This document shows, in pieces, positions 37,509 to 60,981 of a stretch of 64,000 bases of DNA. Where the stretch lies: contig NW_027191414.1 of the NCBI RefSeq assembly GCF_041146345.1, positions 310,001 through 374,000 on the forward strand. Reading direction: 5' to 3'. Below the pieces are notes generated by a model. It was given only the letters and a program-made list of their open reading frames with translations, did not search any database and was not told the DNA's origin. The translations under genes were made by a program, and so were the position numbers. The DNA comes from Neodothiora populina. Taxonomy: Eukaryota. Position 1 is the stretch's first letter. Each line of letters starts with the position of its first letter.

Positions 37509-40500
37509 TTAATCTTCTTCCTGGTATGCAAGCTTGCGCATCTCCCCCAACCTGTGACGGGCAGAGGAGAGAGCGTTCTCCAATTGCAGGATCTCGACTT
37601 GTTGTTCCATGTCTGTAAGTTTTATACGTTAGCATATTATCATTTCTAGATAGACATAACTGAACCAAAGAAGTATATAGAAAGGAGATGCTGGCAGACA
37701 AGGGAAAGCAAGACGTACGCGTCCTGTTGAACTCGTGTTTCGACAGCTTCGAATAATCAACATCGTCGTCCCCGTTGTTCTTGCTATCAATGATAGCCTG
37801 GACCTGCTTGACAAGACTCCTGCAAGCGAATGTGACAGCCTTGCTGGCCTCCTCCAGGCGTTCCTGTGTCTTGGACATGAAGCTGGCCTTGACTCTCGAC
37901 GCGGCGACCAACTGAGCAGTCGAAGCAGCAACATCGTTGGAAGCAACAATGAGCTGCTCAGGAGAGTTACGGCCCGAGATGACACCGTCTGCGGTCTCGA
38001 TGAGGACGTTGGTGCTGTTGGCCACTGCCTTGGCGGCCGAAATGAGACCTTCTGTCCAGCGGTTGTTCTTCTTGTAGAAAGCAGCCTTGGACATGGAGCT
38101 TCCTCTTCCTTCCTTGACAATCTCTTGCTGAGACACGGTAGCTGCCTTGATGAGTCGAGCGATGGCGCTGGTGACGGCGATGGCAGCTTGCAGGATACTG
38201 TCGTGGATCTTGAGTTCGTACGTAGAGTATGCATCTCTGGGCTTGTTGGCAAGCTTGTTGAGACGCTCTGCGGCGTCTTCGATGGCCTTCGCGGCATTCG
38301 TCATTTCGCGGTCGACCAGCTCGCCGAGATCGCCCGAGGCGCTTGTGATCTTGCTCTTGGGTGCAAAGGCATCTGCAATCTTGGAGAGGTGGTTCAGGTT
38401 GACCTGGACATCGTTGTTCTTGTTGATGACAACATCGGTCTTTTGTAGATCATCTAGGCCATCGAGGCGGAAAGACTGGATGCCGCGGAAGAAAGCCACG
38501 GTGCTCTCAGCGCTGCGGCGTGCAGCATTGATGAGCTGATCGGACTTCTTGTCGTCGGAAGCGAAGCGGGTCAGACCCTTGGTGTTCGAGAGGACGTCGG
38601 CGATGGCACCAGAAAACGTGTTGACTGTGCGAATGACCTCGGAGTGTGTCGCATTGGGACCATCCGCGATGAAGTTGTTGAAGGCAGTGGAGAACTCCAT
38701 TGCTGACGAAGCGCCCTTCTCGATGGTGGAAAGAACGTAAGCACCGGACGCGTTCTGGTTACCTGCTTGCATGGTAGAATCAAGCTCGTAGAGAGCGTCG
38801 TCGACACGCTGAACACCAGACTGCAGCACAGAGTCGATGATGTCGTTGATCTTCTTGAGATTGTCGAGCAAAACGACATCGATCTGCTCATCGAGAGCTT
38901 TGTCCGTGTCACCGGCGCCGTTGCGAAGATCGTTGAGCTCCATCAGAGTCTGATCGAGACCGGCTTGCATGATCTGGAGGTCTTCCTCCTTCTCACGCAA
39001 CAGGCGCTCAAGGTCCGAGTTGCCCTCGCCGAACTTGGACTGCGAATCCTCCAAAGCCCTGCTCTTGTGGCGTAGCGCTTCCTCGAGGTCGGAGATCTCT
39101 CTGTTGTACCTCGAGAGCATGGCAGACAGCTCGGATCCCTTTGCCTTTTCTGCATTCTCAGCCTTTTCGAGGGCGAAGCGCAGCTCGCGCTTGAGTTTCT
39201 CCACCTCGTCCTTGTGACCACCGGAAGTACGGTCCTTGTCATGCAGAGCGCGGTCTCTTTCTCTGATCATGTCGGCCAGCTCGAGGTTCTTGGTCTTGAG
39301 TTCTCTCTCCAGCTTGTCTCTCCTGTCAATGGCCTCTTGCGCAGAAGCGGCCTTGAGCTGGACACCCTTGAATTTCTGAAGCAGCTCGAGATGCTCGTGT
39401 CGCAATTGAGAGTAGAGCTTGGCGAGAGCCTCGTACTTTGATCTCCAGGTGTTGATCTGCTCCTGCAGAGCACGGATCTGCTCGTCCTTGGACGTGTTCT
39501 GCTGGGTGAAGTTGTGCGTCATCTGCTGCAGCTCATTCTCGAGAGCCTTCATTCTGGTGTCGTATTGTTGAAGCATAAGCTGGTCCTGCTCGTACTGTGC
39601 TCGTGCATTCAAGTTCTCGCGCTCCAACTCGGCCATCCTGCCTTGAGTCTGTTGCTGGTACTGGTCACGCATGAGTTGTTCCTGCGCCAACCTCGCTTGC
39701 TCAGCCTGTAGACGCTGCTGCTCCTCGAAGTCTCTCTGCGCCTGCATGGACTGCTGCTGCTGTAGTCTTTGCGCCTCCTCCCATTGCTGAGCCAGTCTCC
39801 TCTGTTCCGCCTCGTATTCCTCTTGCTGGCGTGCCTGCTCGTTCTTCCAGAACTCGTTGATTGGCTCCGGATCGGCGGATTCCCTTGGTGGCGGAGAGAC
39901 GGGCTTGGTGACCTCACCCTTCGGCCGCGCAGGCAATGCTGGTCGGTCGTCGTCGGAGGCGAGAAGGTTTGGAGGATCCTGCGGTAGTTTGGGAACAGTG
40001 ATGAGACTAGTGAGGTAGCGAAGGTTAGAGCACTCGTAGTAGAACTTGACCAGCCTGTAGTGTTGCGCATCGTATCTTCCACGTAGCGGCGCGAGGACCT
40101 CGTCGTCTCCGAGAGCCTGGTGCATGGCGCGCAACATGCTCGTGATGAACTTGTAGATTCCGTAGCTCTCCTGCACCAGCGGCATCAATGCAGAGATTCT
40201 GCACTCGTTGTTCTGTCCGCTCTTGAAGTTGGCAAAGATCATCTTCTGGAAAGTCTCGATCTGATCCTGGAGGTTCATCAGATCCGAGATGGTCTCGTAA
40301 CCCTCGTTCGGGTCATTGATCGACTTCAGACTGATGTATTCTTCATACTCGAAAGTTCCGTTGAACTCGGGGTGGTTACGGTGGAAGTTGAGCTTGGCGA
40401 CGAGGTAGTAGACGTAGTCGGAGATCAGCGGACCATAACCTCGCATGCCATCTCCACCCATGGACCCGCGCGACAGCGACTCCAGCCATCCGACATTGGC

Positions 40501-41018
40501 CTGCGCCTCCTTGAGCACAATGGGGTGGCCTTCTTGCAGGACCTTGTGCGTGGTGATGAGAGCCTTGAACGTTTGGACCTCGTCAGCCAGAATGGGTTGC
40601 CTGGGTTATCATTGATTCTCAGCCTGGACTTTCTTCCGTGTACAAACAGAGTGGCCTACACTTTCATGCCCGACCAGAAGGATTGTGACGACTTGTGGTC
40701 CCACGTGTAGACGATACACGCGCGGACATGCTTTCCTGTGCCGATTGTTCAGTCATGCTGTGATATCCCTGTGCATCGCATTGATTATGTTGAAGTGCAT
40801 ACGCTTGGGAGCTGTCTCGTCTGTTGCCTAGTGTCAGCATTCGCTACCGACTCAGCAAAACATGTCGATGCATCCTACCGATGCTCGTGGCCTTTCGGAT
40901 ATTTATCGTGAGCTCTGCCTCTTGCCTGGCATGTTTCGTTAATCACTGATCACCAAGTCCCGCATCAGAGCTGTACCCACTTGCTCATGTCCACATTGCG
41001 CGTCGAGTGAAGCGCCAT
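37509..41018 (-). CDS. SLA2: Sla2/End4 (ANTH + coiled coil + I/LWEQ talin-like domain); several small 5' exons
   Basis: MALHSTRNVDMSK, ETAPKR (18-nt micro-exon about 40803-40820), KHVRACIVYTWDHK, FKALITTHKVLQEGHP, FYKKNNRWTEGLISAAKAVA, ASTAQLVAASRVKA, last exon MEQQVEILQLE...AYQEED*. Confidence 0.96.
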
Positions 41019-41928: not shown

Positions 41929-42983
41929 TTACTGGCCAGCAAGGGCGTAAGCTCTGCGGCGGTCACGCTCCTCGGCAATGGAGAGCTATTGAACATGTTA
42001 GTCGTGTCCTGGTTCATGTCTCACTACCACAAAAGACGTACCTTGACACCCTTGCCCTTGGGGAGGGAGATCCAAGGCTTCTCACGGCCGATGACGAAAA
42101 CGTTGCTCTCACGGGTGGCGAACTCGTTGTCTATGGCGTCCTTGATGTGAACAATGTTGAAGCCTCCATCGTGACGCTCACGGTGGGTGATGACACCAAC
42201 ACGTCCCATGTTACGACCACCAGTGGCCATGGCGATGACACCGGTGTCGAAGCGGATGAAGTCGGAGATCTTGCCGGTGGAAAGGTCGATCTTGACGGTA
42301 TCGTTGACCTTGATGGCAGGGTCGGGGTAACGGATGCTAGAAGACAAAAACTCTCAGCACTTGTGCTCTCTCTTTGTGTGTATATCTTCAAAAACCATCT
42401 TTTTCCCCAAAACTTGATCCAACGGCTGATAGATGCAAAGTGTGGTACTCACGTGCGAGCATCATGCGTAACCAAGTATGGGATTCCGCCCTTGCCGAGC
42501 TGAACGCGCTTGACCTTTCCGAGCTTGTACTCGGCCTCCTCGCCAGTGATGCGGTGGACGGTGAAGCGGCCCTTGGTGTCGTAGACGAGACGGAAGTTCT
42601 CGCCGGTCTTCTCGATGCCGATGACGTCCATGAAGCCAGCAGGGTAGGTGGCGTCGGTGCGGACCTTGCCGTCGACCTTGATCAGGCGCTGCATGACAAT
42701 GGCCTTGGTCTCGCGTCCGTTGAGCGCATACTTGAGGCGGTTGCGGATGAAGACGATGAGGGGCATGCAGTCGCGGAGCTTGTGGGGACCGGGAGATGCC
42801 CTGGGGACTCGTGTTAGTGTCTTGTTTCATTCCTTCTCTCTCCCCATCGTTCTATACCGCAAAAAATAGGGAGCAGAAAATGGTGTGTATTTACTTGGGG
42901 GCGTAAGCTCCGGAGAGTTTGTCCAGGAGCCAGTGAGAAGGCGCCGAAAGACGGGCTTGGTGCTTCTTAGGTCCTCTTCCCAT
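41929..42983 (-). CDS. RPS4: 40S ribosomal protein S4 (eS4); 4 exons
   Basis: [75 protein letters not shown]; strong codon bias. Confidence 0.97.
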
Positions 42984-43816: not shown

Positions 43817-46549
43817 CTAATCCTCGTCGTCGTCGTTGATCATCCTCACTGTGCTAGCCCTCTTGCTCTTGACGCTCCGGGCCTTTGCGGCAGTGGAAGT
43901 GCTGTCCTGAGACGCACGCGAGCCCGGGCGACCGAGGAGTGCTTCGCCCGAGGCACCGCTGACGGTTCGAGCCTGGAAGCTCAATGTGCTCTGACGTAGA
44001 GAACCGCTAGCGGTGCTCAGGGTGGACTTGCGCTTCTCGCTGGCGCTTGACGAAGGAACCTGCGACGATTTGCGCTTGAGAGAGCCTGACATGCGGCTCA
44101 GAACGCTAGGCTTGTTGATCTTAGGTTCATCGCTGTCGTCCTTCTTCGATTTGCCCTTGCTGGATGATGCCAGGTTCTTTATCTTCTCCACCGCTCTGGC
44201 GCTTCGACTGGGGTACTTCGGACGCTGAATAGATATGTCGGTGTCGACGAGACCTTCACGCTGAAGGCGCTTGAGTTCTCTATCCTTCTCGGCCTCTTCT
44301 AATCTCTGGCGTTCCATGTCTTCGTCCACGTATGCCCAGCCCTTGGACATCTGAGGAACCTTGCGCTTCTTCACGAGCTCCTTGGGGATCTCGACAGGCC
44401 CAGCGGCCTCATCGAAGAGCTCACTAGCCTTGCGCTTGCTGCCGCCTGTGGCTGTGTTTTTGAGGCCCCAGGCCATGTCGAATGCTTCCTCCTTGGTCTG
44501 AGGTTTCTTCTGACCTGCAGGCTTAGGTCCCAAGATTTGGCGACAGTTTGCGGCGCCGCAAAGACATTTCTGGACATTGGTGGTAGAGTACGGGCTAGGC
44601 GCAAGTCAGCACTGAAGCTCGTTCATGTGAGTTCTGATCTATAAACTTACTCAAAGTTGTAGTCGTAGGTCAATTCCTCGCCTGTCATGACTCCATTCGG
44701 ACCGGCAAACAGAGCCATGCGCGGTTGACCAATGACGGTGCGCTTAACCATCTCGCAGTTCGGGTCGCAGGAGTGATTGACGAAGCGAGCCAAAGAACCT
44801 CTTGTGGCATCGAGGATCATGCCTTGATCGAATTCCATTTGATAGTAGTCCTGTGATTGAGATTAGCAATCGTTCGGTAGCATCACCATAGGAAGAGTCA
44901 CTTACGGTCTTGTCTGTGTATTCTTCCCTGACCCGTCTGTAGGCTTCATTGGTCGTGATGATCTCTCCAGTGTATTCAGTAATGATTTCGTGGGGCTGAA
45001 ATTCCCTGCATGCCCTGACTCCAAAACCTCTGTCGCTTGTTTTGATGACCTCGACTCCGGCGTTGTACAGGTAGGCGAGACTCTTCTTGTCGTACTTGTT
45101 AGCACGAGTCATACGTACGGAGAGTTCAGAGAAGCTGCGGTTGCCACAAGTGGATCCGACGTTACAATTGCCATTGTCGCACTCGTAGCCTAAAGCCTTG
45201 TTCCAGCAAGAATCATCGCATTCCGTCTCGCAGACACATCTCGAGCTCGGAAGGTTCTGCGTATCGTTCCATATGTCTCTGGATTCGCCGACGAAGCGGT
45301 TTTTGCTGATCTTGCCCCAATCTTTGGGCTTCTCAGTTCCGCGCTCTCGCCATTGAGGGGCAAAGATGCTGTAGGGTATCTTGAAGGGCCTCTCTCTGTC
45401 GAGGTAGCCGAACATGGGAAGCGGCATGACGGCTGTGCGAACGGTAGTGTCAGACGCCAGAGACTCCGAGTTCTGCTTTTTCGACTTCTTCGCCCCGGAT
45501 TTATAGTCGTCGTGTTGGCCGACGTATAAACCCTTGTTCTGATACTTCTTGACCGGCCTCGATCGAGGTTCGGAGGTCTTTGGTTTGGTAATGTTGAAGG
45601 TCGATGAAAGCGAGGGCATGCTGAAAGTAGAGGCAAGGCGGGCCATTTTGCTAGGTCGCTCCTGTACTTCTTCATCTTCGGCGTTGTCATGCTTAGATTC
45701 GACTCTGGCCAGGGATAATGCCGATATGCGACGACTTGATCTACGTCCCTCATCTTTGGCAGAAGCCGACTCGTCTCGGGTTCGTTTTCCGAGAATCTTG
45801 CTCGTGGCCTTTCCAACCGCGTCTGTGAGTCTATTTGCAGTACTCCTCCGACGCTTGACCCCAGCTGAAGGCTCAGCGTCGGCGGATGGAGTGGCCTCGG
45901 TATTGGCCTCGTTGTTCAGGTCACCGACTTCCCACTCCATGTCGAGTGACTTGACACCCTCATCGAGAAGTTTCCTCCTGGGCGTATCGGTAGCCTCTGC
46001 CGATGTGTCATTCACCAAAGTCTGACCGGAGAAGGAGCGAACCTCTTTACCCTTGAGGTTTTCTACAGAGGCATCGACCAGACTCGTGGTAGACGCGTTC
46101 GCCTTTCTCTTATTGTTCGTCAGACGATCGGATTGGCGACGCGCCTTCTCACTCTCTCGCGCCGCCTGCTTTGCCGCTCTCTCAGTATCTTTGTTGAGCT
46201 TCTTCTCTGCTCTCTCGGCCTCCTTGATGGCCTTCATCTTTTCCCTCAATGCCCTCTTCTTCACCTTGTCTTCTTCGGCGAGCTGCTTGAGCAGGACCCT
46301 CATGTTCTCCGTGACCATCGAGGGTGCGATACCCATACTTTCCTTTTCGGCGGCGGCCTCGTCAGAGACACTTTCCGCAGGTACACTTGTAGGAGGGGTC
46401 GAAGGGTGAGAATCAGAAGACAATTCCGAAGCGGAGCGTATCTTACGCGTCTCGCCGATAACTATATTGGAGAGAATGGAGTCGGAACTGTCAGAGGAAG
46501 CAGTGGAAGAAGCACGATGAAGAGAGAAGCTCGACATCTGCTTTGCCAT
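43817..46549 (-). CDS. ASH1: ASH1-like SET-domain histone methyltransferase (H3K36 class); 3 exons
   Basis: KKYQNKGLYVGQ, AWS-like Cys cluster, SET domain RGFGVRA...EYTGEII, ARFVNHSCDPNC, ELTYDYNF and post-SET CLCGAANCR. It lacks the WW/SRI domains of Set2. Confidence 0.85.
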
Positions 46550-46744
46550 CGCTCAGCCGTTCCTTCAACTAGACGAAGAGACGGTGTTGTTGTGATTGTG
46601 AGTAAGGCAGAGTAAGGTAAGGTAGTTCATGTAAAGTTGCGGGAAGGTGGAACTGGGGAAGACGCGAGGGAGCTGCACGCGTTGCCGAAATCGCGGGTTG
46701 TCTGCCGCGAATTGATCTCCTTTTGACCCTGAGTGGTTGCTTGC

Positions 46745-46786: not shown

Positions 46787-47289
46787 CTGTTTTACTCTCA
46801 CTTCCGAACACAAAGTCGACGATGCAACAAGGAAAATCAAAAGTATGCTAGTGGATCACAAGATATAAAGTGAACGTCCAGGGGGTCCCAAGTGAAAGAT
46901 GTTTGTTTGTCTGTTGACTGCAGACTGTGGGCTGCGCACTGCGGACCGTTGAGAGATGAGTTCGGGAGCACAGAAGGGTCAAAGGTTAATAATGTAGACG
47001 AAAATAATGATAAGCCCCTCGCCTTCCACATTCCTCCATGATGGCCGAGCAACCAAGAAATTTGTACGTAGGTACTGTTGTTACAAACGTGGGGCCTTCC
47101 GATCGTGCCCAGAAAGTATTATTAGTGTTGTACGACTCTGTCAGGTCCAACCTTGGGTATATACATCCATAAGAACTCCGACGCTCGGTATTGCTAGCAA
47201 AAACACAGCAAAACAAGATAAAGACTAGAATATTTACAAGAATCTTGCGCTCGCCAGGTTCTGCCCGGCTTTTGGACACACCAAGGCCA

Positions 47290-49357
47290 TCAAAGTTTCG
47301 GCGAGTCCCCTCTCGGAGTGCTATTGATGTTGTTCATAGGCCCTCGTCCCCGGGGACCCTGGAAGCCGCGTGAACTGCCACGGCTGCTGCCATTCATTTG
47401 CTTCATCTCCAGCCCCGACTCCTTCTCCGGCTGCTTCTCCGGCTTCTTGGTCTTGACTGTGTCGCCGATCCGTCTGTCCCCGCGCTCGTAATGCCCCTTG
47501 AACCTCATGTACGTAGGGGGTCGAGGCCGCGCGAGGATGGCCGCCCAGTTCTTCCGCACGGAGTGCAGACTGAAAGGTCGATGTCGGTCCTTTTCTTGAA
47601 ACTTGTGGCTGTTGAGATATTCTCTCGTCGTTTCTCCACGGCCAGTGAGGAAAAGGTGGTATATCAAGAGACTCGCAGGGTAGGGAATTATGATCAAGGA
47701 ATACACAAACATGGCGAACGGCACTCGCCACACGTTGACAGCGTGGCCAAAATTGCTGTGATGACGCACCATCCAGACCAGGATATGAGCCAGAGAGGCT
47801 GCCAGGAGATAGAAGCCCAGAATGGTCCCCGAGGCGACGAAGGTGAAGAAATAACGGTAGTTTCGTCGTCCGACACAATTATTGAGCCAGACGCAGTGAT
47901 GATCCTGGGTCTCAATACAGGCATCACACACTCGGCAGTGGTGTGCCCTCGGTGGACGCCAGATGTTACAAGATTTGCAGAACTTGATCGGCACTTCCAT
48001 TGCTGTCGTGTTGCCATCCGTGCATTGTGCAAAGGACCGCACAGTAACCCATTCGGTGGTAGGGGGTGCAATGGCGAGAGGATCGTCGTTAGAGACCGCT
48101 GAGAGAGCTGGGTGCAGATTGCGGGGGATGATCTACAATATTGGTAAGCACGGGATCGAGGTGACAGGAACATCGGGAGACCTACCCCAGGCTCAGTAAA
48201 GGAGGCGTGAAGGTATGAAGATAGGCAGATGTAGAAAATGTAGGCAAAGATGATGGGTATCGCCGGAGAGACATTGTGCCATAGCCATGGCGCACTAGAA
48301 ATGACAAGTCAGCAAGACACTCATCTCAAACGGTTGAAGACGCTCACGAGAAAACGAAGAACAGAACTGCAGGTAATATTGCCATGAAAGCTGTGAGAAG
48401 ATTAAGCGGACGTTGGCGCGCGTTGATCAATCGGCCGTGAAGGAAGAAAACAGCATTGCCATTGTAGTATTCGTGATTCCTTCCCAGATCCGGCCTGATA
48501 GCTTTGGGAGCCTTCTCTTCAGCAGCATAGCCTGCCGGTGAAGGTGGGGCGGATTCGAGCTTTGTGTGTCCGTCGCGGAACTCGTGTAAGCGGTTCCTGC
48601 TCTGTCGTCCCCATGAGGGCTGCAAAGACCGGGGCGATCGGGGAGACTTTTGCGCCTTGAGGGAGGAAGCAGATCTGGTTGGTAGACCCAGTTGAAGAGG
48701 GGCGGGCAATCCTGGAGTGTGCAACGGGGTGTGGCTTGCGACACTCTCAGCCGTGTCCATCCGATTGGCGTCGCCTTGCGTCTCGGTGATGCTTGCGCCA
48801 GTACCCCTGGATCTGGGCACGGGCGGAGCATCAGGGTCTACCAGTGGTCGCGGCTGACCTTCGACCGTGACTATGGATGCATTGCTGTTTCTGTGCTTGT
48901 GACTCCGTTGCCCACTCTGCGAACTGGGTCTCGCCATATCTAGCTGCTGAGCAGGGGGTGATAGAGGTCGACGATCGGATTCGCTCTGCTCTCGGGCTCT
49001 CTTGGAGCTGATCGGCCGCAGGAAAGCACTCGATATGATGTTGGGGACATGGGTTCTGCTGGTGGCGGTGGTGGGCGGAGATGGCTCGTAACTGCCGCGG
49101 CCTCGGGATACGGTGCGTCGCATGCCAGAGGAAGAAGTGATGACATTGCCACTGACACGTCGTGCCGGCGGTAGAGCAGCTTCGCCAACCGGACCCGTCA
49201 TCGAGGGTACTGTGGGAGAGGGCTCGCCATTGTCGGAGATGCTGGCGCCGGTCGGCCTGGAGGCATCGTCGTTGGAGATTGTCGCTCCGAGGAAGGTGAA
49301 CAAATCCTCTCCTCTACCTCCAGACCGGGAAGTAGCCGGGGGTTGTTCTTGGGTCAT
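47290..49357 (-). CDS. ERF2: DHHC palmitoyltransferase Erf2 (Ras acyltransferase); 3 exons
   Basis: LGRNHEYYNGNAVFFLHGRLINAR, TEPG|IIPRNLHP, KFCKSCNIWRPPRAHHCRVCDACIETQDHHCVWLNNCVGRRNYRYFF and GETTREYL. Confidence 0.93.
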
Positions 49358-49600
49358 CGCAGTATAGCGGATGCTATGATGACTTGGAAGTGGTCGTGGT
49401 GTATGTCTGGGCCGATGACGGTCGCTTACAAACCATGACTCTGTTCGGGTATTACTGTTTCATGCCCGCATCCATCACGACGACGGCGATTGTGCGAATA
49501 TGGAATTGGAAGGCAGAGTAGGTATGGTGGGCGACGTGGTTGGAAAGTCCGGATGATTTTGATAGAATAAGCTGGCGCAATTGTTTTTGTCGAGTATGCA

Positions 49601-49636
49601 CAGTAACAGTAACAGTAACAGTAACAGCAACAGCAA
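49601..49636. repeat. (CAGTAA)4(CAGCAA)2 hexamer repeat upstream of ERF2
   Basis: Read directly. Confidence 0.9.
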
Positions 49637-50500
49637 CAGTCGGGTACAGTAATTATGTCAAGATACAGTAGTTCCGGGAAATTGAAACGGCCAGAAGCAG
49701 GACCGTTTCTGGTGACTGACGCTACGAGGAGAATGGAAGAACGGCGGAAAAGCACCTTCGGACGGCCGTACTATAACCAGTATTATTACCTCCGTATAAA
49801 TAATGCTAGTACCTTAGGTAGCCTGCTAGTAAACTGGGACACTTCAGCCCGTTTGGCCCATCTCATGCCTCTTGCATGCGCCAAGTTGCACTATGCTTGC
49901 ACTATGCTCTCGCTAGCTCCGGCTGCTAATTTGCTTCTTATTTCCTCTCCGCGCCATCCTCTTGCGCCTTGCTCGGACTCCGCTCTGGCTCTCGGTGACA
50001 GATTGCTCATGTCCTCCCAATCGAGTACAATAACATGGAGGCGGCGCCCGTATGTACTGTGGTTTCTAAGATACGCCATCTCAGCTAGGCTGCCGTGCCA
50101 TGTCTGGACCTGATGTCTGGAACCATCGATTAGGGATCCCTCGACGCTTGGCAGGCAATGGCACTCCTAATATGATATGCTTTGCAGCTTCTCGACTGAT
50201 TGCTGACTGCTCATTGCCCATTCGATCGAGTCTCATATCAAAGCCTGGTCCCAGCGTTTCCTTCTCCTTGCCTGGCTTCAATGCTCGCGCTCAGTCTTTC
50301 TCTCATTTGCGCATCGCTCTCAAGGTCTCACTACATCATCGGATCTCACGTCCCTATAATTAGTATGGCTCATGCGCGAGGTGATGCTCGAAGTCCATGG
50401 TAGATCAATTCCCCTGCTGCAGTTCGTCATTGTATGCCACTTGACAACCGAGAGGGCTGCTCTCATCGAATGTATCTACCAGTAATTGGGTAAGGCGCCG

Positions 50501-50673
50501 CTTTGTTGCCAAGAACAATATCAAGCGCGAGATCTTTTACCTAGTAAGCCACCACTTTCTTTGTCCCATACCATCAACAACCGAATCTTTTGGTTGGGTG
50601 TAAGCTATCAAAGATATAATATCAAAGTCTGTGCGAGAGAATAGAACAATATCATGTTGAGAACAATACCATG
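50501..50673 (+). promoter_or_regulatory. Cluster of HMG-box-type binding motifs upstream of the putative pheromone gene
   Basis: AGAACAATA three times (50512, 50643, 50660; the last two as the repeat AGAACAATAyCATG), CTTTGTT 50501, TTTCTTTGT 50556 and TATCAAAG twice (50606, 50620). Confidence 0.6.
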
Positions 50674-50873
50674 ATCTCCTGGCTGGAGTCATATTTAGGC
50701 ATGCTTGATTTTCAGTTATTCTTTCCGTCTTCCAATTTCTCCAATCACAACTCAAACTTCCACTATCATATTTTTGTCCTTTACCAAGATACGTCTCTCT
50801 CAAAAGACAAACTATCAAGCTACTCACAAGTCAACCCTGCACCACTCCAAGATTGCAAGACTCCGTTAAACCA

Positions 50874-50978
50874 ATGGCATCATCAACCGTCTCTCAACCA
50901 GCCGACTCCAAATGGTGGGGTGGATCCAGCAAGGATCCCTACAACGGCAAGGGCGGCGTCATGTGCATCGTCATGTAG
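50874..50978 (+). CDS. Putative a-factor-type (CaaX lipopeptide) mating pheromone precursor, 34 aa: MASSTVSQPADSKWWGGSSKDPYNGKGGVMCIVM
   Basis: Intronless short ORF. It has a Ser/Thr-rich N-terminus, no signal peptide, a terminal CaaX (CIVM) directly before TAG, a C/A-rich leader and upstream HMG motifs. It is below the ORF-track cutoff. Confidence 0.82.
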   Translation: MASSTVSQPADSKWWGGSSKDPYNGKGGVMCIVM

Positions 50979-51739
50979 ATGCGCATGCTGAACGTCAATG
51001 AGCGCCGTCCATCGACCTACGCCTCATTCTTTCGTAGTGTCGAAGAGCAACTTTGCTTTGATCGATGATGATGGTATTATACTTTACGGTCACTACAATC
51101 TCTGGCAGAAGACATCGACCCAGACGAGCCCTGGACACAGTCATCTAAGACGCAGCCCTGGCACTATCATGGGTTAGCGAGCAACTTTCAAGGTTATTCC
51201 AGAGCAGAAGATAGCAACCTTGCAGATGTTTCGAGTATTGTTGCACTCCATGCAATGCTCGCACAAAGGCAGCGGCCCCATTGTTACTGTAGATGAGCTT
51301 CCAATGAAACATGATTCTCGTCGAGCCCATTATTTTCTCTCATTGTCCTGAAGACGTGAAGCATATCCGTGTCCCAAAGCACTTTCTTATAGCTATATAC
51401 ATGACCTTTAGTACAAGTATACCATTACCTAGCAACGAACCACGAAAGTAATCAATCATGATGATAACCAACCAATCAACAAAGGCGTCATTACATGCAG
51501 CCGAAGGGCGAGCCCTGAAGCCGGCGAGCCGGATCCCAGCCCTAGCAGGGAAACGGCAACAGCCGCAGCAAAGAGGAAAGAGCATCACCAGACGACGACC
51601 TCAGCTTCCGGCGCAGCGGGAAAGCGACGACAAGCAACGACAACACAACTCTATACCACTTCCGACCTCATTGTTGTTCAACTTCGCATACCAAAACCCA
51701 CCCAATCTCCTGACTCCAAAATCCCACAAAAAACAAAAA

Positions 51740-52672
51740 ATGGCCTCCATCATCGGTCGCGCCGCCTTCCGCGCCACTCGTCCTCTTCGCTCTACCGGCG
51801 TTCCCAGCGGTAGCCCTGCTGCCACTGCTGCCGCCGGTCGCCAGCAGGATACCAATGCGCTCAAGAAGGGCGCGAAGAGGGATCCCGAGCTTCTCGTACG
51901 CCAGACCTGCTTCTCTTTCTGATCCAGTCCTTTCTCTCTGTCTGCCCATACCTCATACACCCTCAACCGCGGAAATGAATGGCGTCCGAGGCCCTTTCCC
52001 CCATCCACGCTCCCAGAAAAAAAAAGCCCAGCAGAAAAGATACCCTCCCCGAGCCCGAACAACCACCCCGAGAAGCCCCCCCCCCCCCTTAAGACCAACC
52101 TCCTAACGCGCCCCCAACAGATCCTCCTCACAATCATGTCCGGCGCCTTCGGGCTCGTAGGCTGGCACTTCAGCCGCAACCCGACCTCGTCGAGCAGCGA
52201 GAACGCCGTGGCCAAGGCCCCCAACTCCGAGCCCTGGAACACCGGCTCCGAGGCCAAGTACCAGTTCCACCCTGGCGGCGACAGCTCCAAGCCTAAGAAG
52301 GACGCTCCCTCGGCCCTCAACGAGGTTATTGTGCCTAATGTCAACTTGCCTAGGGTCAGCTTTCTCTCTTTCCTTTTTCTTTTGGCTTTGTGTTCGGTTT
52401 GGGTGGGTTTGTTGTTCTTGGGTCGTGGTTCATGGTAGGGAGCAGTCGCTAGGGTTGGTTTCCTGCCGATTGGAGGTTTGAAAGAGGAGGAAAGGGCCGA
52501 GAGAAGCGAGAACAAGCATGCAGAAACGAAGAAATAACCACTTCAAGAACCTCGAGAACAGGACACCCCACCGACTACGGACCAGGATCCGCAAGCAGCT
52601 CCCCGCTAACATCATCTTCTCCTTTAGGAACTCCACGAGAAGTACAACAAGTGGGGCAAGGAGGGATACTAG
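51740..52672 (+). CDS. Small single-TM protein with mitochondrial-type presequence (possibly NDUFA4/MLRQ-like; family uncertain); 3 exons
   Basis: MASIIGRAAFRATRPLR...KKGAKRDPELL|ILLTIMSGAFGLVGWHF...KYQFHPGGD...APSALNEVIVPNVNLPR|ELHEKYNKWGKEGY*. Introns 51896-52120 and 52355-52627; strong codon bias. Confidence 0.8.
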
Positions 52673-53137
52673 ATCCACCTCCTCCCGTATTCTCACCCTC
52701 TACAACAAACGCGGCAGCGAAAGAGGCAACATCCCTTATCTTGTAGAAAACACGAAACATGAGAATGAGACATTCATAGGAGAGGAGAAGGAGAGACGAG
52801 TCGAACATATTGTGAGACAGAGACAGAGACCGAGACAGAGACAGAGAGAAATGTATAGAGTTACAAAACAACCCCCTTGCGTCTTTTACCACACCAAACA
52901 TGATCCCTTTTCCCATAAGGACTGTTTCAAGTGATTTGGTTTTCAGTTTGTCTTCTTATCGTGTCGCTCTTCACTAAACTCGTACTGATCTACAGCTGCC
53001 AGTAGGCCTTCTCTGGAGTCTAGTGGCTTCATGCAACCATCATCATCTGTCAAAGCTGCTTCCATTACCTCGACCACATCCTGTCTTCGGTCTGGAAGAC
53101 GAAGACGTGGAGCGCACCGGATGATGCTCAGAGTCGT

Positions 53138-55588
53138 TCACCACTTCCTGCCGCCGATACCGACGCCTGCAAACTTCAGTCTTCCCTCCTGGGGCTGGAC
53201 TCCTCTGTTACCCAGACTAGTCAAAGTGCCAATCGCCATTGGAGGCTCATGTTCGACCGCAATCCCTCCTATACCAGCGGTGCCGTGGCCGCCGAAACGA
53301 CTGCTGCTGCTCGTAAAAGTCATGGGCCTGTATCTCGCGTCTCTGCCGATCCGCTCGGGGGGCTGGCCCCAATCATCGCCGAAATAGGACTTGTTGCCAT
53401 TGGGACCCCTGTCGATGCACCACTCGGGAGCCGGTGCGAAACGTGCAAAAGGACCATGGCGTTTCTCAATGGGACCTTCGACATAAGACGCAAGGTTCTC
53501 CAGTACGGGTATCAAAAGTCGCGTGGTGTCTTCATTGAAGTCGACGGAACCTTTGCGCTTGTGACTCGAGGTTGCATTTGCGTTTGGTGGGCCTATAGGA
53601 CCAGGCGAGCGCTTGCGAGGCATAGTCGACTTGTGGGCGAGCTTTATTCGCTCGTAAAACTCGTCTTGTCGAGCGCGAGTGTTGCCGCCTAAAAACCAGT
53701 CTCGGAGTTCTTCATCATAGCTTTTCTTGCTGATATCTACAGCTGGGCTGCCGGTGAAGAAAGGTCCTTTCCAATTCTGAGGTGTTGGCATGGAGTATTT
53801 GGCCAACTCTTCGTTGCTGAGCGAGCTGTATGTGCCAACATCATCAAGGACATCGAAACGTCTTGGATTCCAGGGGTCTGGATCAGGCTCGCTCACACCG
53901 AACAAGTCTCTTCTGTCCACAACACTATCGTCGGGGAATACAGGCAGTGGGCCATGAGCACGGAAACTTTGCTCAGAATGCGAAGCCGTACCCACGCTAT
54001 TACTTGTATACAGCGATGACGCTGATTTGGATGATGGCTTTTGTGCGCGTGCTGCGGTCTGTGTTCCGAGAGGGTCCTTAAGCACTGTTCTGGCCGCCGC
54101 TGCTCCCGTTCCGCGAGCCGACGCCGATTCTCCTAGCTTGTTCAGGTACTCCCGCATAGCGGAGCGCTCATTCTTCCGAATGCTGGCACTAGTGACTGGT
54201 ACAGACGGTTCATGCGAGGACTGGGCAACCACGGGAGGGACGCAGTATGCGGGCTGTTGTGTAGAGACATCGGCAATACCGCCCGCCTTGTAATTGGATT
54301 CATATCCAGGCACGTGTTGATACGAGTATGACACTGCAGTGCCAGGAACAGGTGTATGATGTTCTGACGAGGACCCGCGCCAGGCGAGATGTTCTCCGTT
54401 TGCACTAGCATCAGCAAAAGAAATGGCGGCATTTGCAAAATCGAAGGTACCGTAGTCGTCAGGTACTGACTCCCACGCACCAGAGTTGCGGTGGTACGCG
54501 CTCGGAAATCCACCGAAGGACATGCTGTCAAGCGAAGACTGCGTACTGCTCTGAGGCAAACTTGGAACGGGTGGTAGCTGCGCTTGTGAAGAGTGTGATC
54601 GGTTCTGATTGGCAACTTTTGTTGGCACACCAGAAGTCGTGTCCGTCAGCATTACCGGGGTCTTTTGAGGTGGCTCTCCTTGCGCAACTTTCGAGCTCTC
54701 GGTGGGTACGACAGGCAAATAAGTGTTGACTTCCTTGGGTCCCCAAGGAATGCCCATAGTCACAGCCTCCGACTGCTTTGCCACTGCGCGGAAGTATGCG
54801 AGGGTGTTTTGCATCAAGGCTTGCTGCTCTGTCTCTCCTTTCAGCCTCGTGGCTGCAAGCATGCCCTCTCGACGCCGGCGAATGTTTGAGTATTGACCTA
54901 TGTTGGTCCACTGAAACTTGTGGAAAGACCACTGCTGTGCGGAAACATCGCCGTTTGGGTGCATCACAAATTGTATCTGGCCATTTCTGAAGCCTGTGTT
55001 GGACTGCACAAACTCTGGTGGTGGGAGATCGTTGCCGAAAACCTCGTTGATCTCTTTTTTGTCAAAGGGGGCTGCGATTGCAGGTGTCTGCTCCGAGGTC
55101 CTCGCCTCGTATGCATTCAATGCAGCCGCTGGCTTCGACGCTGCCTTGGCCTTCCTTCCTGTCACCAGCTGGAAACCTCCCTCGTCATCATGTCCTTCCG
55201 AAATGAACGCGCCAGCCCTGATCCTGCTGCGAGTGCTGCTCATCGGTGTGATGGACCGAGTGCCACTGTGGGAGCCAGCAGCGGTGTTAGGTCTGAACTC
55301 TTTGGCGTGAACATCAAAAGGGGTCAAATCGCGAGAAGTGATGGGGTCCGAGGCTGACAAGTTCTCATCGCTGCTGTTGTTAAGGCTGAGAGGTTTCCAC
55401 TCGGTCTTAGCCTTGCGGCTCGACCTTGCTTTGGCGCTGACAAGAGCAGCATCATTTTCGATGATTCTCTGTTGCTGGCGTTTTAGTTTATCGGCAGCAA
55501 GTTCAGCAAGACGAATCTCGTCTGCCTGTGCTGTGTCTGAGTCGATCACTCGTGACATGTCACTTGCCACGCCTCTGGACATGGCCAT
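53138..55588 (-). CDS. Uncharacterised, largely low-complexity protein; start codon uncertain (upstream intron-like segments to about 55870)
   Basis: Open frame of more than 2.4 kb with ordered-looking blocks (GQIQFVMHPNGDVSAQQWS...WTNIGQYSNIRRRREG; LLIPVLENLASY...APEWCID...SYFGDDWGQPPERIGRDARY). The first plausible ATG is 55588 (MAMSRG). Confidence 0.8.
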   Translation of the reverse strand: MAMSRGVASDMSRVIDSDTAQADEIRLAELAADKLKRQQQRIIENDAALVSAKARSSRKAKTEWKPLSLNNSSDENLSASDPITSRDLTPFDVHAKEFRPNTAAGSHSGTRSITPMSSTRSRIRAGAFISEGHDDEGGFQLVTGRKAKAASKPAAALNAYEARTSEQTPAIAAPFDKKEINEVFGNDLPPPEFVQSNTGFRNGQIQFVMHPNGDVSAQQWSFHKFQWTNIGQYSNIRRRREGMLAATRLKGETEQQALMQNTLAYFRAVAKQSEAVTMGIPWGPKEVNTYLPVVPTESSKVAQGEPPQKTPVMLTDTTSGVPTKVANQNRSHSSQAQLPPVPSLPQSSTQSSLDSMSFGGFPSAYHRNSGAWESVPDDYGTFDFANAAISFADASANGEHLAWRGSSSEHHTPVPGTAVSYSYQHVPGYESNYKAGGIADVSTQQPAYCVPPVVAQSSHEPSVPVTSASIRKNERSAMREYLNKLGESASARGTGAAAARTVLKDPLGTQTAARAQKPSSKSASSLYTSNSVGTASHSEQSFRAHGPLPVFPDDSVVDRRDLFGVSEPDPDPWNPRRFDVLDDVGTYSSLSNEELAKYSMPTPQNWKGPFFTGSPAVDISKKSYDEELRDWFLGGNTRARQDEFYERIKLAHKSTMPRKRSPGPIGPPNANATSSHKRKGSVDFNEDTTRLLIPVLENLASYVEGPIEKRHGPFARFAPAPEWCIDRGPNGNKSYFGDDWGQPPERIGRDARYRPMTFTSSSSRFGGHGTAGIGGIAVEHEPPMAIGTLTSLGNRGVQPQEGRLKFAGVGIGGRKW

Positions 55589-57573
55589 GTCTGTAGATGG
55601 AAATGAGGGTGTGTAGACTCTTGCTTTCTCGATGGTTGTCTGGATATCGCACCGCTCACTTTGGGCGAAGTGATCAGTGCAATCGAAAAATAGTGAAGAA
55701 AGGATCAACACGTACCTGCAGTAGACTGCAATCTCAACGGACGAGGCAGCTGCTCAGGGCGACGTTTCCTGTGTCAAAGACGAAATCAGATCGAAGTCTA
55801 CGAGGTCAGTCTACCTGATCTGCATGGCAACACTCATCACGAATCTCACCACTGTAATGGCGTATCTCATGTTAATACCCAGCGACGATCCCTTGGATCC
55901 TTGACGCGATCTGTAGGACGGAAAGCTGCGCCCCTTGGATGCAAGATCTAGAGCGTGCACTGAGGTTGCAGCAGATCCAGTGTTGCGGCACAGGAGGCAG
56001 GCGCACGATGCTTTCACAAGGACAAGTTCCGGGTACATCAGACAATCGCGAATGGCATGAACAGAACAACTAGTCCTCACGCACAGTCTTCATCTACAAA
56101 CGCAGACCCCATTCTGACGATACAGTCCGGCTCAGTCTTCACGGATTTGCCCTTATTTGCTCTTACTCCTCTCCACAACTCTAAGCTGGTAGCATACATG
56201 TACGACACCCATGTGTCCAACAGAAATGAACCGCAGGCCACACGTAGAAGCAGTAGTTATATGCAATGTTGTCAATCTATGAGTGACTGTCACCTGTCCA
56301 GCAGATCATCTTGTTCTGGCTGAAGAAACAAACGATTCAAGGAAAAAGTCTATGATACTTAACAAGTGTGGCCACCCATGCTCGCGTGAACGCTGCATGC
56401 ATCCGAGTCGATGCCGCCTTCCCAACGTTCACTTCACTGCAGCAGAGCCATCGTCTGGCCGTCTTCCATTGAGCATGAGCGTAAGATACCTTAGACGTCT
56501 CTACTGATTCGCCGTCTCTGGTGACCACCTGATTACCTACCTGCCTACCGACCTAGCAGAATAACAAACTTGTGGAATTTATCGTTGATATCCATCTCCA
56601 TACGAAAGCAATGAAGCAGAACACAAGAAGCCGCTACATATATCCTACTACCAACCGCATCGTACTCTCAGCCATCCCTTGTGCCGTCTTGGTCTACCTT
56701 ACCCTTGCTCCGCCCGAACACATTCTGCAACACTTCCGTCGTCGCGAACGGCCAATAGAAGAAGGCACAGTGCCAATGTCAGCCGACGATGTGGACAGTC
56801 ATGATAGAGATTATGCAAAGGAGCACTACGGATCGGATCGGATCGTCCAGGATGATGTAAATTTCATGGATACTGTGCGCTGTGAGATGTGGCTGATAGC
56901 CTCGCAAGCTTTGAATAACAGCGCTGCTCACGAGGATTGCCATGACATACTGGAACCATGAGGCGCCGAAGGTATGACTGGGTAACTACAGCATGCGAGG
57001 ACCTCATCGTTCGGACGCGACACCTTCGATGCTTCTAGTAAACATGCGGAGATAACCTGAGCATGTGCACACGACATTAGTCGATCATCCAGTCACCACC
57101 AGCTTTTGCAAAGTTTTGATGATTTGCTAGGGATCGAAGACGTTCAAGGACTAGCAGAAGTCAGCTGGGGGATGCTGAGGACCATTGCAAGATCATTCAA
57201 TCGGCTTGTCTACAATGCTTGTGTTCGCATATGTGAGCTGTGATGGAGATGGTGAATGGTAGTGGAGTGCGACATGAAGTAGCTGCCGGAAGCGGATGAT
57301 ATGACAAGGCACGGACCACGATGGCGGGGCATCAGCGACCATCAGCGACGGCTGCCGCGAAAGCGATCAACGACTTATCGTGGCCCTCGTCCACCTTACC
57401 GTATCTTAGCATTGTATAACTCGTTTGATCCATTTTGAAAAGTTCGACCACAAGTGCTATTGTATCGTGATTCTACAGGACAGCACGCGCCTTGATTCCC
57501 ATGACCGTAGTCACAGCTGAAAGGACCACCGCCATAACCAGATACTTAACAGTCACAACAAATATAGCCCATC

Positions 57574-58210
57574 ATGCAGGCAATGCCGGATTCACGGGAG
57601 CAGACCTTTGAGGAAATCTACGGCCCGCCAGAGAACTTCCTCGAGATAGAGGTACGCCAACATTGGGGGATCCCGCAAGCGGTCACCAAATCCCCCCCAA
57701 AATAAAAGGCCAGCCCACGCACGCATTCAGACTAACACAAAGACGTCCGACTCCGAATAGGTTCGCGACCCGCAAACACACGGCCTGACTCCCTCGTCGC
57801 GCTACACAACCTACGAGATCGCCCTCTCGACCAACATCCCCAGCTTCAAACTGCGCAACAGCAGCGTGCGCCGCCGCTACTCGGACTTTGAATACTTCCG
57901 CGACATTCTCGAGCGCGAGAGCGCACGCGTCACCATCCCGCCCTTGCCTGGCAAGGTCTACTTCAACAAGTTCGACGACGCCGTCATCGAGGATCGCAGG
58001 AAAGGTCTCGAGCGTTTCTTGAAGATTGTCGTCGGTCATCCGCTTCTGCAGACGGGAAGCAGGGTGCTGGGCAGTTTTGTGCAAGGTGAGTAAGGTTCTT
58101 TGTGTTTTTTCTCTTGCTCCGTTTGGAATGCAAGGGGAGTTGAGACGAGTATGTCATCTTACTGATTCGAACTTTGTATAGACCCCAATTGGGATAGGAA
58201 TGCGTGGTAG
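57574..58210 (+). CDS. SNX3: Sorting nexin-3 (PX domain); 3 exons
   Basis: [33 protein letters not shown]...[30 protein letters not shown]...[18 protein letters not shown]. Confidence 0.95.
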
Positions 58211-59352
58211 TATGCGGCTTCTTGATCTCTCTGATCTTCGTCTTCAACCCCAAGTCAATACCAAGTACGGTCCAGTAAAGCCTACCACATCCTACCTTAC
58301 CTGTAATGGAGGAGAGTGGGCCCCATCTTTCTTGAGGTCATTGTTACCTTGCCTCGTTTTTATGAGCGTTTCAGCGTATATGCGTACCACTATTTTCTTC
58401 CGATTCGCCCTAGGCGCTGCTGACGTAATTTCTTTTGCACCTTCGCGTAATTCACCATTTTTACTACGCAGAATTATAAAGCATTCAGTATGGTTTGTGT
58501 CTTTTCGAATGTGCCAATCTTTTTTAGAGTCTGCCGGTAATCTTGCGTATGCCAGTAGGTAAGGACACATCCAAGTGAGGTAGGTGGTCATTAAGTGATC
58601 TTATCGCTCGTTGAGCGCAAGGCGTTATGTCTCTGAAAGAACTGCCATACCATTTTCATGTCTCATGTTTTCAGCATAGAGGATTGCAATAAGCTGTTTG
58701 ACACAGAGTCAATCTTAGGGATTTAATCTTCGCAGTGGCGTAGGTGGTTCTCTTTCTTAATTGATCTCTACACACAACAGTGATTCTAATTCTACTCTAC
58801 ATTATACATTCCTCGCTACCTAGATTATCTGCATGGATCTTTCACGAGATTCTGAGGTCCAGCCACTTGCATAGTTTGGGAAAGCCGCACTGAGACATAG
58901 TCTGCTAAGTCAGAAAGGGCAGTCCAACATGACACTTGTGTAGCAGCAGAGTACAACATCACGGGCTCGCAGTGAGGCGCTCTAGCGGTCCTATGCCATG
59001 CTAATCACGTTAGGACCGCAGCTAGCAGTGTTCGTAGCATCTCTGATCACTGCGCTGGCCATGTTCCCAGCCGCTCTAGTGTAGTAGACTGCACTTTCGC
59101 TGGCACTTGTTCAGTGTACCAGCCCCCTGTTGCCTAAAGAAGCTGGACTACGAACATGCGCACTCCAATGCTATTGTTGTCGTGAGGAACCTGAAACACA
59201 TTGGTCTCATAGTTACCAGCCACCTAGCTTGTTGTTTGTGCACAAAACAGACGTAGATCAAGTGAACATTCCTTTCCCATTGCACCCATACTTCCTGTGT
59301 TCACACAAATTCGTCTAACAAAGAAAAGTCTTACCTTGGCCTTTTGTACACC

Positions 59353-60621
59353 ATGTCTGCTATCGGTCCATTGGCTGAGCAGCTGGGCGAGATCCTGGCG
59401 CAGTATACCCCTGAACAAATTGCTGCACTTATTGATGCTGCTGTGAAGATGCAGCCAAAGACCACTCCTCCAGCTGCGACACCTGCAAAGCGTCGCTCGA
59501 AGAAGACTGCAGTCTCCAAAGTCGCACAGCAGACTGATGAAGCTAAGCTCGATAAGTCCATCAACACTGCTCCATCTCGTCCACTGAACTCCTTTCTGGC
59601 CTACAGAAGTAAGCATTTCAATTGTTCTCGCCTTGCTGTTGATCATTTTTTAACAAAAAGGCAACAGGCTACTACGCATCAATCTTCAAGAAGTACCAAC
59701 AGAAAAATATTTCTGGTCACTTGAGACGTATGTGGACTGAGGATCCTTTTAAGGCCAAATGGAGCATTGTTGCAAAGGCCTACTCAATGATCCGTGAGCA
59801 CGAAGCCAAAGATGACGCCCCTCTGAGCGAGTTCCTAACCATTGCCTGCCCACGCATTGGCATCATCTCCAAGGAGAATTACTTGGCTGTCATGGGCTGG
59901 GTAATCACTGAAGACCAGGATGAAAAGAAAATGGTCCGCCGTTTCGAGCCAGACTTCACCACTTTCGGCGATGACATCCTTGTCACCAACATGTCTGCTG
60001 ATGACGTTGTTGCTTTCGCTGCGCACTCTAAGTACATTGATCAGGTTAGTGACGGCGCTGCTCATTTTCATTGCCAACTTACTAATGACCTCTGCATAGT
60101 CCACAGGTGCCGCTATCGAGCCTTCTTCACCTACACGCGTGCAGATGGTCGCTGCTTCTCTGGCCCAAGTCCTTGCCAACAACCCGGCTCAGGTCCTTGA
60201 TACCGCTGCTGCTCAGGCCGTTGCTGCTGGTCCACCTCTTTTCGTGGGCACTACCCAGGCCCAAGCCATGGCTTCGGCCACAGATGCTCCTGTCGTTCCC
60301 AAGGCCGTTCAGACAGCTGACAAGACTGTCGAGACCACTTACATGCCACAAATTATCGATAGATACACTCCTGGTAGTGTAGCCGCGCTGCAACAGACTC
60401 TCTTCGACTTCTCCGATCAGGAGTACCCTTTCTACGATGGTTTTGACCCACTGGCAACTGAGACTCCAACTCCAACTTGGAACCCATTGGTCGGCAACCC
60501 TGACATTCCTTACGATGTCACCGACCCCGCCACCTACCTCCCCCAGACCGAACTTGATTTTCCCAGCGACTTTGACATCGACGAGATCATGAGAGGAAAC
60601 ACACTCGGTCTTTTTCAGTGA
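59353..60621 (+). CDS. MAT1-1-1: Mating-type protein MAT1-1-1 (alpha-box transcription factor); 3 exons
   Basis: RPLNSFLAYRS|YYASIFKKYQQKNISGHLRRMWTEDPFKAKWSIVAKAYSMIR, with the conserved alpha-box intron in the Ser codon (59609-59667). It continues with APLSEFLTIACPRIGII..YLAVMGW, a second intron 60045-60099 and an acidic C-terminus. Confidence 0.95.
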
Positions 60622-60981
60622 GACTGCTCATTGGAACTTCTCTACACATACAGCACTTTAGGCACATAACGCACATACAGCAGTTATAGCACATATCGAA
60701 GGGATGATGTCGCTCACATGCGGCACTAGAGACGGTGTTTACGTGATTCTGGGGTTTGGCTTGGCTGTAGCTCCGGAAGGAGGGTTCGGCGTTTGGGGAG
60801 GCTCCTTTGCGTGTACCTTACAGTACACATAGCAGGTACAACAGCACATTCCATAGTAATAAATACCCTGTCACCATAATCGCTTTCGAAATACATTCCC
60901 TATCTCATGTGATCGAAAACATGCATCGTAACTATATCTCTTGTTCATTAAAACCCCAGTGAATCTGAGGTTGCCATCTTG

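Follow-up and report, generated by a model that had tools for sequence, protein, structure and literature searches.

Does the flank of a mating-type (MAT) locus in Neodothiora populina carry a gene for an a-factor-type lipopeptide pheromone? Genes of this type diverge fast and are notoriously hard to find outside the Sordariomycetes; PpgB of Aspergillus fumigatus, a heterothallic non-Sordariomycete ascomycete, is said to be an a-factor-like pheromone, going by the title of a 2025 paper by Krappmann et al. The question is raised by a 34-codon open reading frame (ORF) ending in a CaaX box, which lies in a 64-kb stretch of contig NW_027191414.1 (positions 310,001 to 374,000, hereafter the window). 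We read this candidate as a real, single-unit precursor gene for an a-factor-type CaaX lipopeptide pheromone of a heterothallic Pezizomycotina fungus, situated in the non-idiomorphic MAT1-1 flank, and give this reading a probability of roughly 0.65. The build of the ORF, a cluster of high-mobility-group (HMG) box-type sites upstream of it and the presence of a similar arrangement at other CaaX ORFs argue for it.

The short ORF and the sites upstream of it

Direct reading confirmed the ORF and the translation that the initial annotation had proposed: it runs ATG GCA TCA ... TGC ATC GTC ATG TAG and encodes MASSTVSQPADSKWWGGSSKDPYNGKGGVMCIVM, and its ATG is the first in the stop-to-stop frame 50709-50978. 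The locus is single-copy, with uniform DNA depth. A CaaX box in which X is Met directs farnesylation, and Cys31, within the box CIVM, is the predicted farnesylation site of the candidate precursor. Its 34 residues fall within the range of about 20–65 aa for such precursors; the N-terminus (MASSTVSQPADSK) is hydrophilic, S/T-rich and not signal-like, and KR and RR sites are absent. Y-N-G and G-G are found 5–9 residues ahead of the Cys, with no G-Y dipeptide. The 170 nt before the start codon contain no ATG in any frame, and this pyrimidine/CA-rich stretch might form the core promoter and 5′ leader (Table 1).

Among the 739 ATG-to-stop ORFs of 15–120 aa in the window, the candidate is the only one with a C-[AVILM]-[AVILM]-X end. 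A narrower, pheromone-type ending, C[VIT][VI]M, which was picked after the ORF had been seen from the endings listed in PMC10569646, appeared in none of 100 simulated windows (first-order Markov versions of the window).

Seven HMG-type sites are packed within 162 bp (50501-50662), 210–375 bp upstream of the candidate ATG. Counting the cores [AT]CAAAG and AACAAT[AG] on both strands in 200-bp windows, the next-best stretch of the 64 kb holds three sites, and the maximum over 200 simulations was four. The cluster combines M-box-like sites (GAACAATA), Ste11-box-like sites (CTTTGTT, CTTTCTTTGTC) and two copies of ATCAAAG. Exact copies of GAACAATAYCA are found at 50513, 50644 and 50661 (−361, −230 and −213) and nowhere else in the 64 kb; with at most one mismatch, this motif occurs six times in the whole window, where 1.7 are expected. 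A second, smaller group of HMG-type sites is located 260–300 nt past the stop codon (Table 1). The most economical reading of the main cluster would be HMG-box control by the mating-type pathway, through a binding protein that we infer from other fungi.

In the pathway that we infer, with its binding factor, mating-type specificity, processing steps, mature peptide and receptor, HMG-box mating regulators would bind the seven-site cluster and thereby activate the gene, chiefly in MAT1-2 cells; candidates for these regulators are the MAT1-2-1 protein and, acting with it, a factor of the Ste11/PaHMG5 type. The 34-residue cytosolic precursor would be farnesylated on Cys31, the IVM tripeptide removed, the new C-terminus carboxymethylated and the N-terminal part trimmed; the initial annotation proposed GKGGVMC-farnesyl or a longer form as the mature peptide. 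The lipopeptide would be exported by a Ste6-type ABC transporter and would act on a Ste3/Pre1-type receptor of MAT1-1 partners.

Multi-repeat CaaX ORFs in related contigs and known pheromone systems

Using the DHHC exon of ERF2, the palmitoyltransferase gene that is the divergent upstream neighbour of the candidate, we fetched 80 fungal loci from metagenome contigs (52–79% identity). Of the 21 loci extending 2.6 kb or more past the SET gene, four (L031, L038, L068 and L070) have clear multi-repeat CaaX ORFs. These occupy one conserved position near ERF2, on the opposite strand to it and about 2 kb past the SET-domain match (Table 1). Each is built of three to four units ending in CTVQ or CTVS, with an R after each unit. 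The L031 precursor would have to be trimmed before it could be prenylated, as RI separates its last unit from the stop. The multi-CaaX genes of L038 and L070 are flanked by SET on one side and a HAD-hydrolase gene on the other, and no MAT gene is visible there. A word-based protein search with the L070 peptide gave no match. Multi-repeat CaaX/CpaX a-factors have been described in Huntiella, in the Fusarium fujikuroi complex and as the Trichoderma h-type pheromone (PMC10182648), and the units of the four ORFs (peptide, C-T-V-Q/S, then R) match the build of the Huntiella a-factor (PMC10569646 File S2; PMC10182648). The four look like unannotated Huntiella-type a-factor genes of other Pezizomycotina lineages.

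The candidate a-factor promoter arrangement is common to these four independent multi-CaaX ORFs. In each, GAACAATA(G/T) is found between about −210 and −320 and a TATAAA box between about −113 and −136. The upstream motif can be written GAACAATAG and is mostly present as GAGAACAATAGTA. Two or three AACAAT-type sites each are found at about −210 to −320 in L038, L068 and L070, with the exact GAACAATAG at just one of those of L038; TATAAA follows at about −130 in these three. In L031, one AAGAACAATATTAAGC is located near −215, CTTTGTC near −145 and TATAAATA near −113, and the AAGAACAATATTAAGC is identical at 15 of 16 positions to the first copy of the candidate, AAGAACAATATCAAGC. The ORFs of L038, L068 and L070 are also preceded by CTTCAA/CAATTTC-rich leaders similar to that of the candidate. 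No Ste12-type pheromone response element (TGAAAC[AG]) is present in the 700 nt upstream of the candidate or of these three ORFs.

Across 760 kb of fungal DNA (the window and the 80 related loci), GAACAATA occurs 23 times and forms clusters (at least two within 200 bp) in three places only, upstream of the candidate and of the L068 and L070 CaaX ORFs, a comparison that is not an independent prediction because the motif was spotted by eye and then tested on the same data. With the looser AACAAT[AG], four of nine clusters are directly upstream of CaaX ORFs. The densest 200-bp stretch of HMG cores among the related loci, with five sites, is upstream of the L070 ORF. Another HMG-type cluster, in L003 (11861-12029), was rejected as a pheromone promoter, because it is inside the SET gene, at its 3′ end, and no CaaX ORF is near.

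The candidate and the four metagenomic ORFs thus have in common the GAACAATA(G/T) motif at a similar distance, the ERF2-SET neighbourhood and a Gly-rich stretch before the Cys. They differ in that multi-repeat precursors carry 3–5 units ending in C-T-V-Q/S followed by R, whereas the candidate has one unit and an M end and is on the other side of ERF2.

The Sordariomycete a-factors (Neurospora mfa-1, Sordaria ppg2, Podospora MFM; PMC10569646 File S2) consist, like the candidate, of one short precursor without a signal peptide. Their S/T-rich, M-x-S-T-like start, for example in MPSTAAST...NGYCVVM (PMC10569646), corresponds to M-x-S-S/T in the candidate, and both have Gly, Asn and an aromatic residue near the Cys and a C-(V/I)-V-M end. 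The candidate differs from them in its length (34 residues against 21–24), its WW-GG-S middle, a YNG instead of GY, the absence of detectable homology and its position 8.4 kb from MAT.

Within the Pezizomycotina, all a-factors known before the Leotiomycete candidate of 2023 came from Sordariomycetes (PMC10569646). The Leotiomycete protein family (B. cinerea BCIN_13g03330) resembles our candidate in being a short, S/T-rich CaaX ORF found without BLAST, and the endings given for putative a-factors of Leotiomycetes include CIVM (PMC10569646). However, its proteins are 45–64 aa long, Cys-rich (...CLECDGYECCCIPIPCTVM) and conserved in 111 species, while the candidate has a single Cys and no relatives found. 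Literature searches combining a-factor or CaaX with Dothideomycetes or Eurotiomycetes found nothing further.

The promoter also has counterparts. According to PMC3730723, both pheromone genes of Podospora anserina, MFM and MFP, carry in their promoters the core ATCAAAG, as does the candidate cluster, and depend on the Ste11 orthologue PaHMG5, whose deletion lowers pheromone transcripts 250–2500-fold. For fission yeast, PMC1693924 places M-boxes such as AACAATAG and ACAATG upstream of mfm1-3, with the mfm2 sites in its Table 3 given as AAACAATGGGTCAAACAATAGG...AACAAAGAG. The HMG protein Mat1-Mc binds these M-boxes and drives mfm1-3 with Ste11, the M-boxes being upstream of weak Ste11 boxes (AACAAAG) and, by the spacing rule for S. 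pombe, 14–26 bp from them (PMC1693924). Like the candidate on our reading of it, mfm1-3 are CaaX lipopeptide genes with AACAAT(A/G)G-type and AACAAAG-type HMG sites 130–330 bp upstream (PMC1693924).

Relatives, transcripts and competing explanations

Several results weigh against a pheromone gene at this position. A HMMER search of 1.84 billion representatives yielded no true candidate relative; its two matches were rejected as repeat artefacts, being long tandem-repeat proteins. A word-index protein search with the 40-aa in-frame stretch gave no match, and the ESM Atlas gave no usable one. Against the 80 loci, tblastn of the candidate peptide returned chance-level matches only, and blastn of 49460-51700 returned none. 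The best-placed tblastn match, ASSIVAMPSDSK in L042 and L004, was rejected as antisense to a 492-aa ORF.

Synteny does not help the candidate either. A homologue of the small three-exon gene downstream of the candidate adjoins ERF2 in 41 of the 80 related loci, and these 41 span the whole interval between the two genes; a convincing CaaX ORF was found in none of them. The closest thing to one, a 55-aa ORF ending in CTAP in L039, is a weak case. The proposal of a syntenic short CaaX ORF in related genomes is therefore not supported, though by relatives that are not close: identity of the ERF2 N-terminal exon to that of the window is at most 53%, and 48% in the nearest interval-spanning locus. 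The nearest interval-spanning relatives (L042/L004, L003 and L014) are without the candidate ORF. The arrangement of a divergent small gene and ERF2, followed by SET, is widely conserved in the related loci. The interval measures 577–1422 nt in 31 of the 41, 1.9–2.9 kb in the other 10 and 2764 nt in the window. In L042 (2587-4065, minus strand) and the matching stretch of L004, it is filled by the unrelated 492-aa ORF, so what fills the interval seems to differ between lineages. Since the 41 covered intervals hold no convincing CaaX ORF and the nearest ones have other DNA, the candidate is located in lineage-specific DNA. As the peptide has 34 residues, evolves fast and would usually be skipped by gene callers, absent relatives are weak evidence either way.

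Transcript data came mainly from run X2, which shares its sample with the probable source assembly. It is labelled ‘DNA?’ and was treated as cDNA-like because its contigs skip two ERF2 introns and two small-gene introns and end in poly(A). X2 covers the 3′ end of the candidate (Table 1) and also 49997-50240 (depth 2), compared with a depth of 9 for ERF2 and 60–180 for the small gene. The X2 contigs listed leave 50874-50931 without cover, a gap that we use as evidence neither way. In one contig, a stretch downstream of the stop codon is skipped; read on the minus strand, its ends are GT..AG, and a branch-point-like CTAAC precedes the AG by 13 nt. This suggests, on weak evidence, that part of the RNA here is antisense or non-coding and overlaps the 3′ end of the candidate, and it too counts against our reading. 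No run recorded as RNA contains the stretch. Heterothallic Sordariomycetes show preferential a-factor expression in MAT1-2 strains (PMC10569646); as the presence of the MAT1-1-1 alpha-box gene makes this haplotype MAT1-1, low expression would be neither surprising nor informative.

Two side observations concern the same runs. Run X3 contributed small, near-identical pieces elsewhere in the stretch only. A CAG/CAA trinucleotide repeat at 49599-49640, just upstream of ERF2, collects a pile-up of many unrelated contigs in all three runs (X3 depth up to 921), which is a mapping artefact.

Might the 34-codon frame simply be a chance ORF that is never translated, the HMG cluster being real but serving a low-level, possibly minus-strand non-coding RNA or the divergent ERF2? 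A short ORF with a generic CaaX end is expected by chance: the simulated windows contained 2.7 short ORFs with a C-[AVILM]-[AVILM]-X end on average, and 94 of 100 had at least one, so a generic CaaX end proves nothing. The lack of a homologue, the 41 intervals without a convincing syntenic CaaX ORF and the CT..AC joint, which indicates a minus-strand spliced RNA at 51164-51218, would fit this explanation too. It does not account for the C[VIT][VI]M ending, absent from all the simulations, nor for the densest HMG cluster of the 64 kb being directly upstream of the frame and arranged as at the four multi-CaaX ORFs. Being downstream of the mapped end of the minus-strand RNA (50932), the cluster is not the promoter of that RNA. 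The 5′ end of ERF2 as mapped is about 920 bp away from it, the ERF2 intergenic region is short in most relatives, and no related locus has a GAACAATA cluster except upstream of the L068 and L070 ORFs. We therefore hold a chance ORF to be unlikely, while still taking it seriously.

The frame could also encode a real small CaaX peptide that is not a mating-type-specific pheromone, namely a prenylated peptide with another signalling role, as is debated for the Leotiomycete candidate, or the remnant of a G-gamma tail. The tail WWGGSSKDPYNGKGGVMCIVM (50910-50975) resembles by eye that of the Botrytis G-gamma Bcgg1, ...IWGTVEKKDDPYAPQQSGGCCLVM (PMC10569646 File S3), the two having W-G, K, D-P-Y, G-G, C and V-M in common in this unscored comparison. 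However, no Pfam G-gamma domain was detected at E ≤10 in the ORF, in its 89-aa open frame or in three larger upstream plus frames, and inspection by eye found no coiled-coil G-gamma-like exon in the plus frames of 49460-50880. With neither a domain nor upstream exons, identity as a G-gamma last exon was rejected. For a peptide with another role, an HMG-site promoter of the pheromone-gene kind argues instead for mating control, and we consider this whole explanation quite improbable.

We thus retain the pheromone precursor as our reading of the candidate. The proposal that it is the a-type pheromone of the species fits the short length, the absence of a signal peptide, the N-terminal composition, the CIVM end and the HMG cluster, and finds no backing in relatives or synteny.

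Position next to MAT and what it may mean

From the gene coordinates (Table 1), the distance between the candidate stop codon and the MAT1-1-1 start is about 8.4 kb, inside the SLA2-MAT interval, as the initial annotation had stated. The small gene, the 871-aa ORF and the PX-domain gene stand between the two. An ‘extended mating cluster’, also suggested there, is not supported, with at least three genes in between and no convincing CaaX ORF in any of the 41 intervals; tight physical linkage to MAT is a fact, but a functional cluster is not supported. A scan of 30 larger ORFs of the window revealed neither a Ste3-type receptor nor another mating gene. Because the small gene and the 871-aa ORF also adjoin ERF2 in the relatives L003 and L042, it is most likely that the idiomorph does not include the candidate and that both mating types carry it.

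Table 1 Features of the window and multi-repeat CaaX ORFs of related contigs (the latter in coordinates of their own loci).
Feature	Position	Strand	Description or basis
Candidate precursor CDS	50874..50978	+	34 codons + TAG; product MASSTVSQPADSKWWGGSSKDPYNGKGGVMCIVM; direct reading and translation
ATG-free pyrimidine/CA-rich stretch 5′ of the start codon	50704..50873	+	Putative core promoter + 5′ leader; direct reading
HMG-box-type site cluster	50501..50671	+	Putative upstream activating region; site count vs simulations
Cluster site CTTTGTT	50501
Cluster site GAACAATATCA	50513 and 50644
Cluster site CTTTCTTTGTC	50555
Cluster site ATCAAAG	50607 and 50621
Cluster site GAACAATACCA	50661
Second HMG-type group	51236..51285	.	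TATTGTT, ACAAAG, CATTGTT (3 sites)
X2-covered stretch	50932..51421	.	Depth 2–6; last 47 nt of the CDS + ~440 nt downstream; cDNA-like contigs
Possible 55-nt intron of a minus-strand transcript	51164..51218	−	One X2 contig, depth 2, 28 nt on the short side
SLA2	37423-40605	−	ANTH + I/LWEQ
Ribosomal protein S4 (RPS4)	42024-42826	−	Between SLA2 and the SET gene
SET/AWS protein	43817-46552	−
ERF2-type DHHC palmitoyltransferase	47081..49579	−	Divergent upstream neighbour; Pfam DHHC E 2.2e-37; spliced X2 contig with poly(A); introns 48133-48185, 48295-48347
Small conserved three-exon gene	51671..52898	+	Downstream neighbour; introns 51896-52120, 52354-52626; poly(A) 52898
871-aa ORF	53138-55753	−
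PX-domain (sorting-nexin-like) gene	~57761-58093	+
MAT1-1-1 (alpha-box)	~59353..60621	+	Pfam MATalpha_HMGbox E 1.7e-29; alpha-box ORFs 59266-60621
PH/MMM1-domain gene	from 60952	+
L031 multi-repeat ORF	13040-13215	−	MSGIISLH(RTPAPGVQCTVQ)x4RI
L038 multi-repeat ORF	12495-12653	−	MAGVGASPQCTVQRSGTGSSPQCTVQRGGTGASPQCTVQRSGTGSSPQCTVS
L068 multi-repeat ORF	8056-8217	−	...GGCTVSRGPIGTGGCTVQRSDPIGTGGCTVS
L070 multi-repeat ORF	12782-12940	−	...GGCTVQRIAKGGTKGGCTIQRNAKGGVNGCTVQLGGVSGGCTVQ

The PX-domain and PH/MMM1-domain genes flank MAT1-1-1 closely (regions considered: 57761-58093 and 58300-60950), which suggests a short idiomorph (< ~3 kb) with MAT1-1-1 as its sole recognisable gene. On the other side, RPS4 and SLA2 were found beyond SET in none of the 80 related loci, so the junction of SLA2-RPS4 with the ERF2-SET block may be lineage-specific. 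A literature search on the gene order MAT1-1-1, SLA2, palmitoyltransferase and sorting nexin found nothing relevant. About 30 kb from the candidate is a phosducin-family ORF (19428-20240, plus strand, Pfam E 6.8e-11). This family regulates G-beta-gamma signalling, and the ORF is probably an ordinary neighbour.

As in the P/R loci of basidiomycetes, a lipopeptide pheromone gene would here be found near a mating-type determinant. The window differs from such loci in that no Ste3-type receptor is found among the 30 ORFs scanned, and in that the candidate is most likely beyond what seems a short idiomorph, with conserved housekeeping genes between. The position next to MAT is real, but its meaning is unproven. 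At 8.4 kb, genetic linkage is tight, which is relevant to the co-evolution of pheromone alleles and mating types.

Pheromone-like genes were found beside the ERF2-SET block in five separate contigs, the window included, which gives a lead towards an old association with this block rather than with MAT. A bolder version of this idea, which we regard as improbable, is that the pheromone gene is an old resident of the ERF2-SET block in the Pezizomycotina, and that what marks it, instead of the peptide, is an M-box-like GAACAATA(G/T) HMG-site promoter which it has in common with the fission-yeast M-factor genes. A local move, and the joining of SLA2/RPS4 to SET, would have put it in the low-recombination MAT flank, where each mating type would inherit its own pheromone allele. 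If this were true, an ascomycete would here have taken a first step towards a mating locus with a linked pheromone gene, in the style of the basidiomycetes.

Beyond this locus, the analysis yields a promoter signature and the four multi-repeat precursors of the related contigs. As a signature that does not depend on BLAST, we suggest clustered GAACAATA(G/T)/CAAAG HMG sites followed within about 400 bp by a short CaaX ORF. In the 760 kb, the strict cluster picked out only the candidate and two of the four multi-repeat precursors. The looser form brought the number of these precursors to three, and in the fourth, L031, the motif is present once. Whole genomes of Dothideomycetes, Eurotiomycetes, Lecanoromycetes and other classes could be scanned with this signature. 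For the species itself, if the ORF is real, it gains a testable pheromone.

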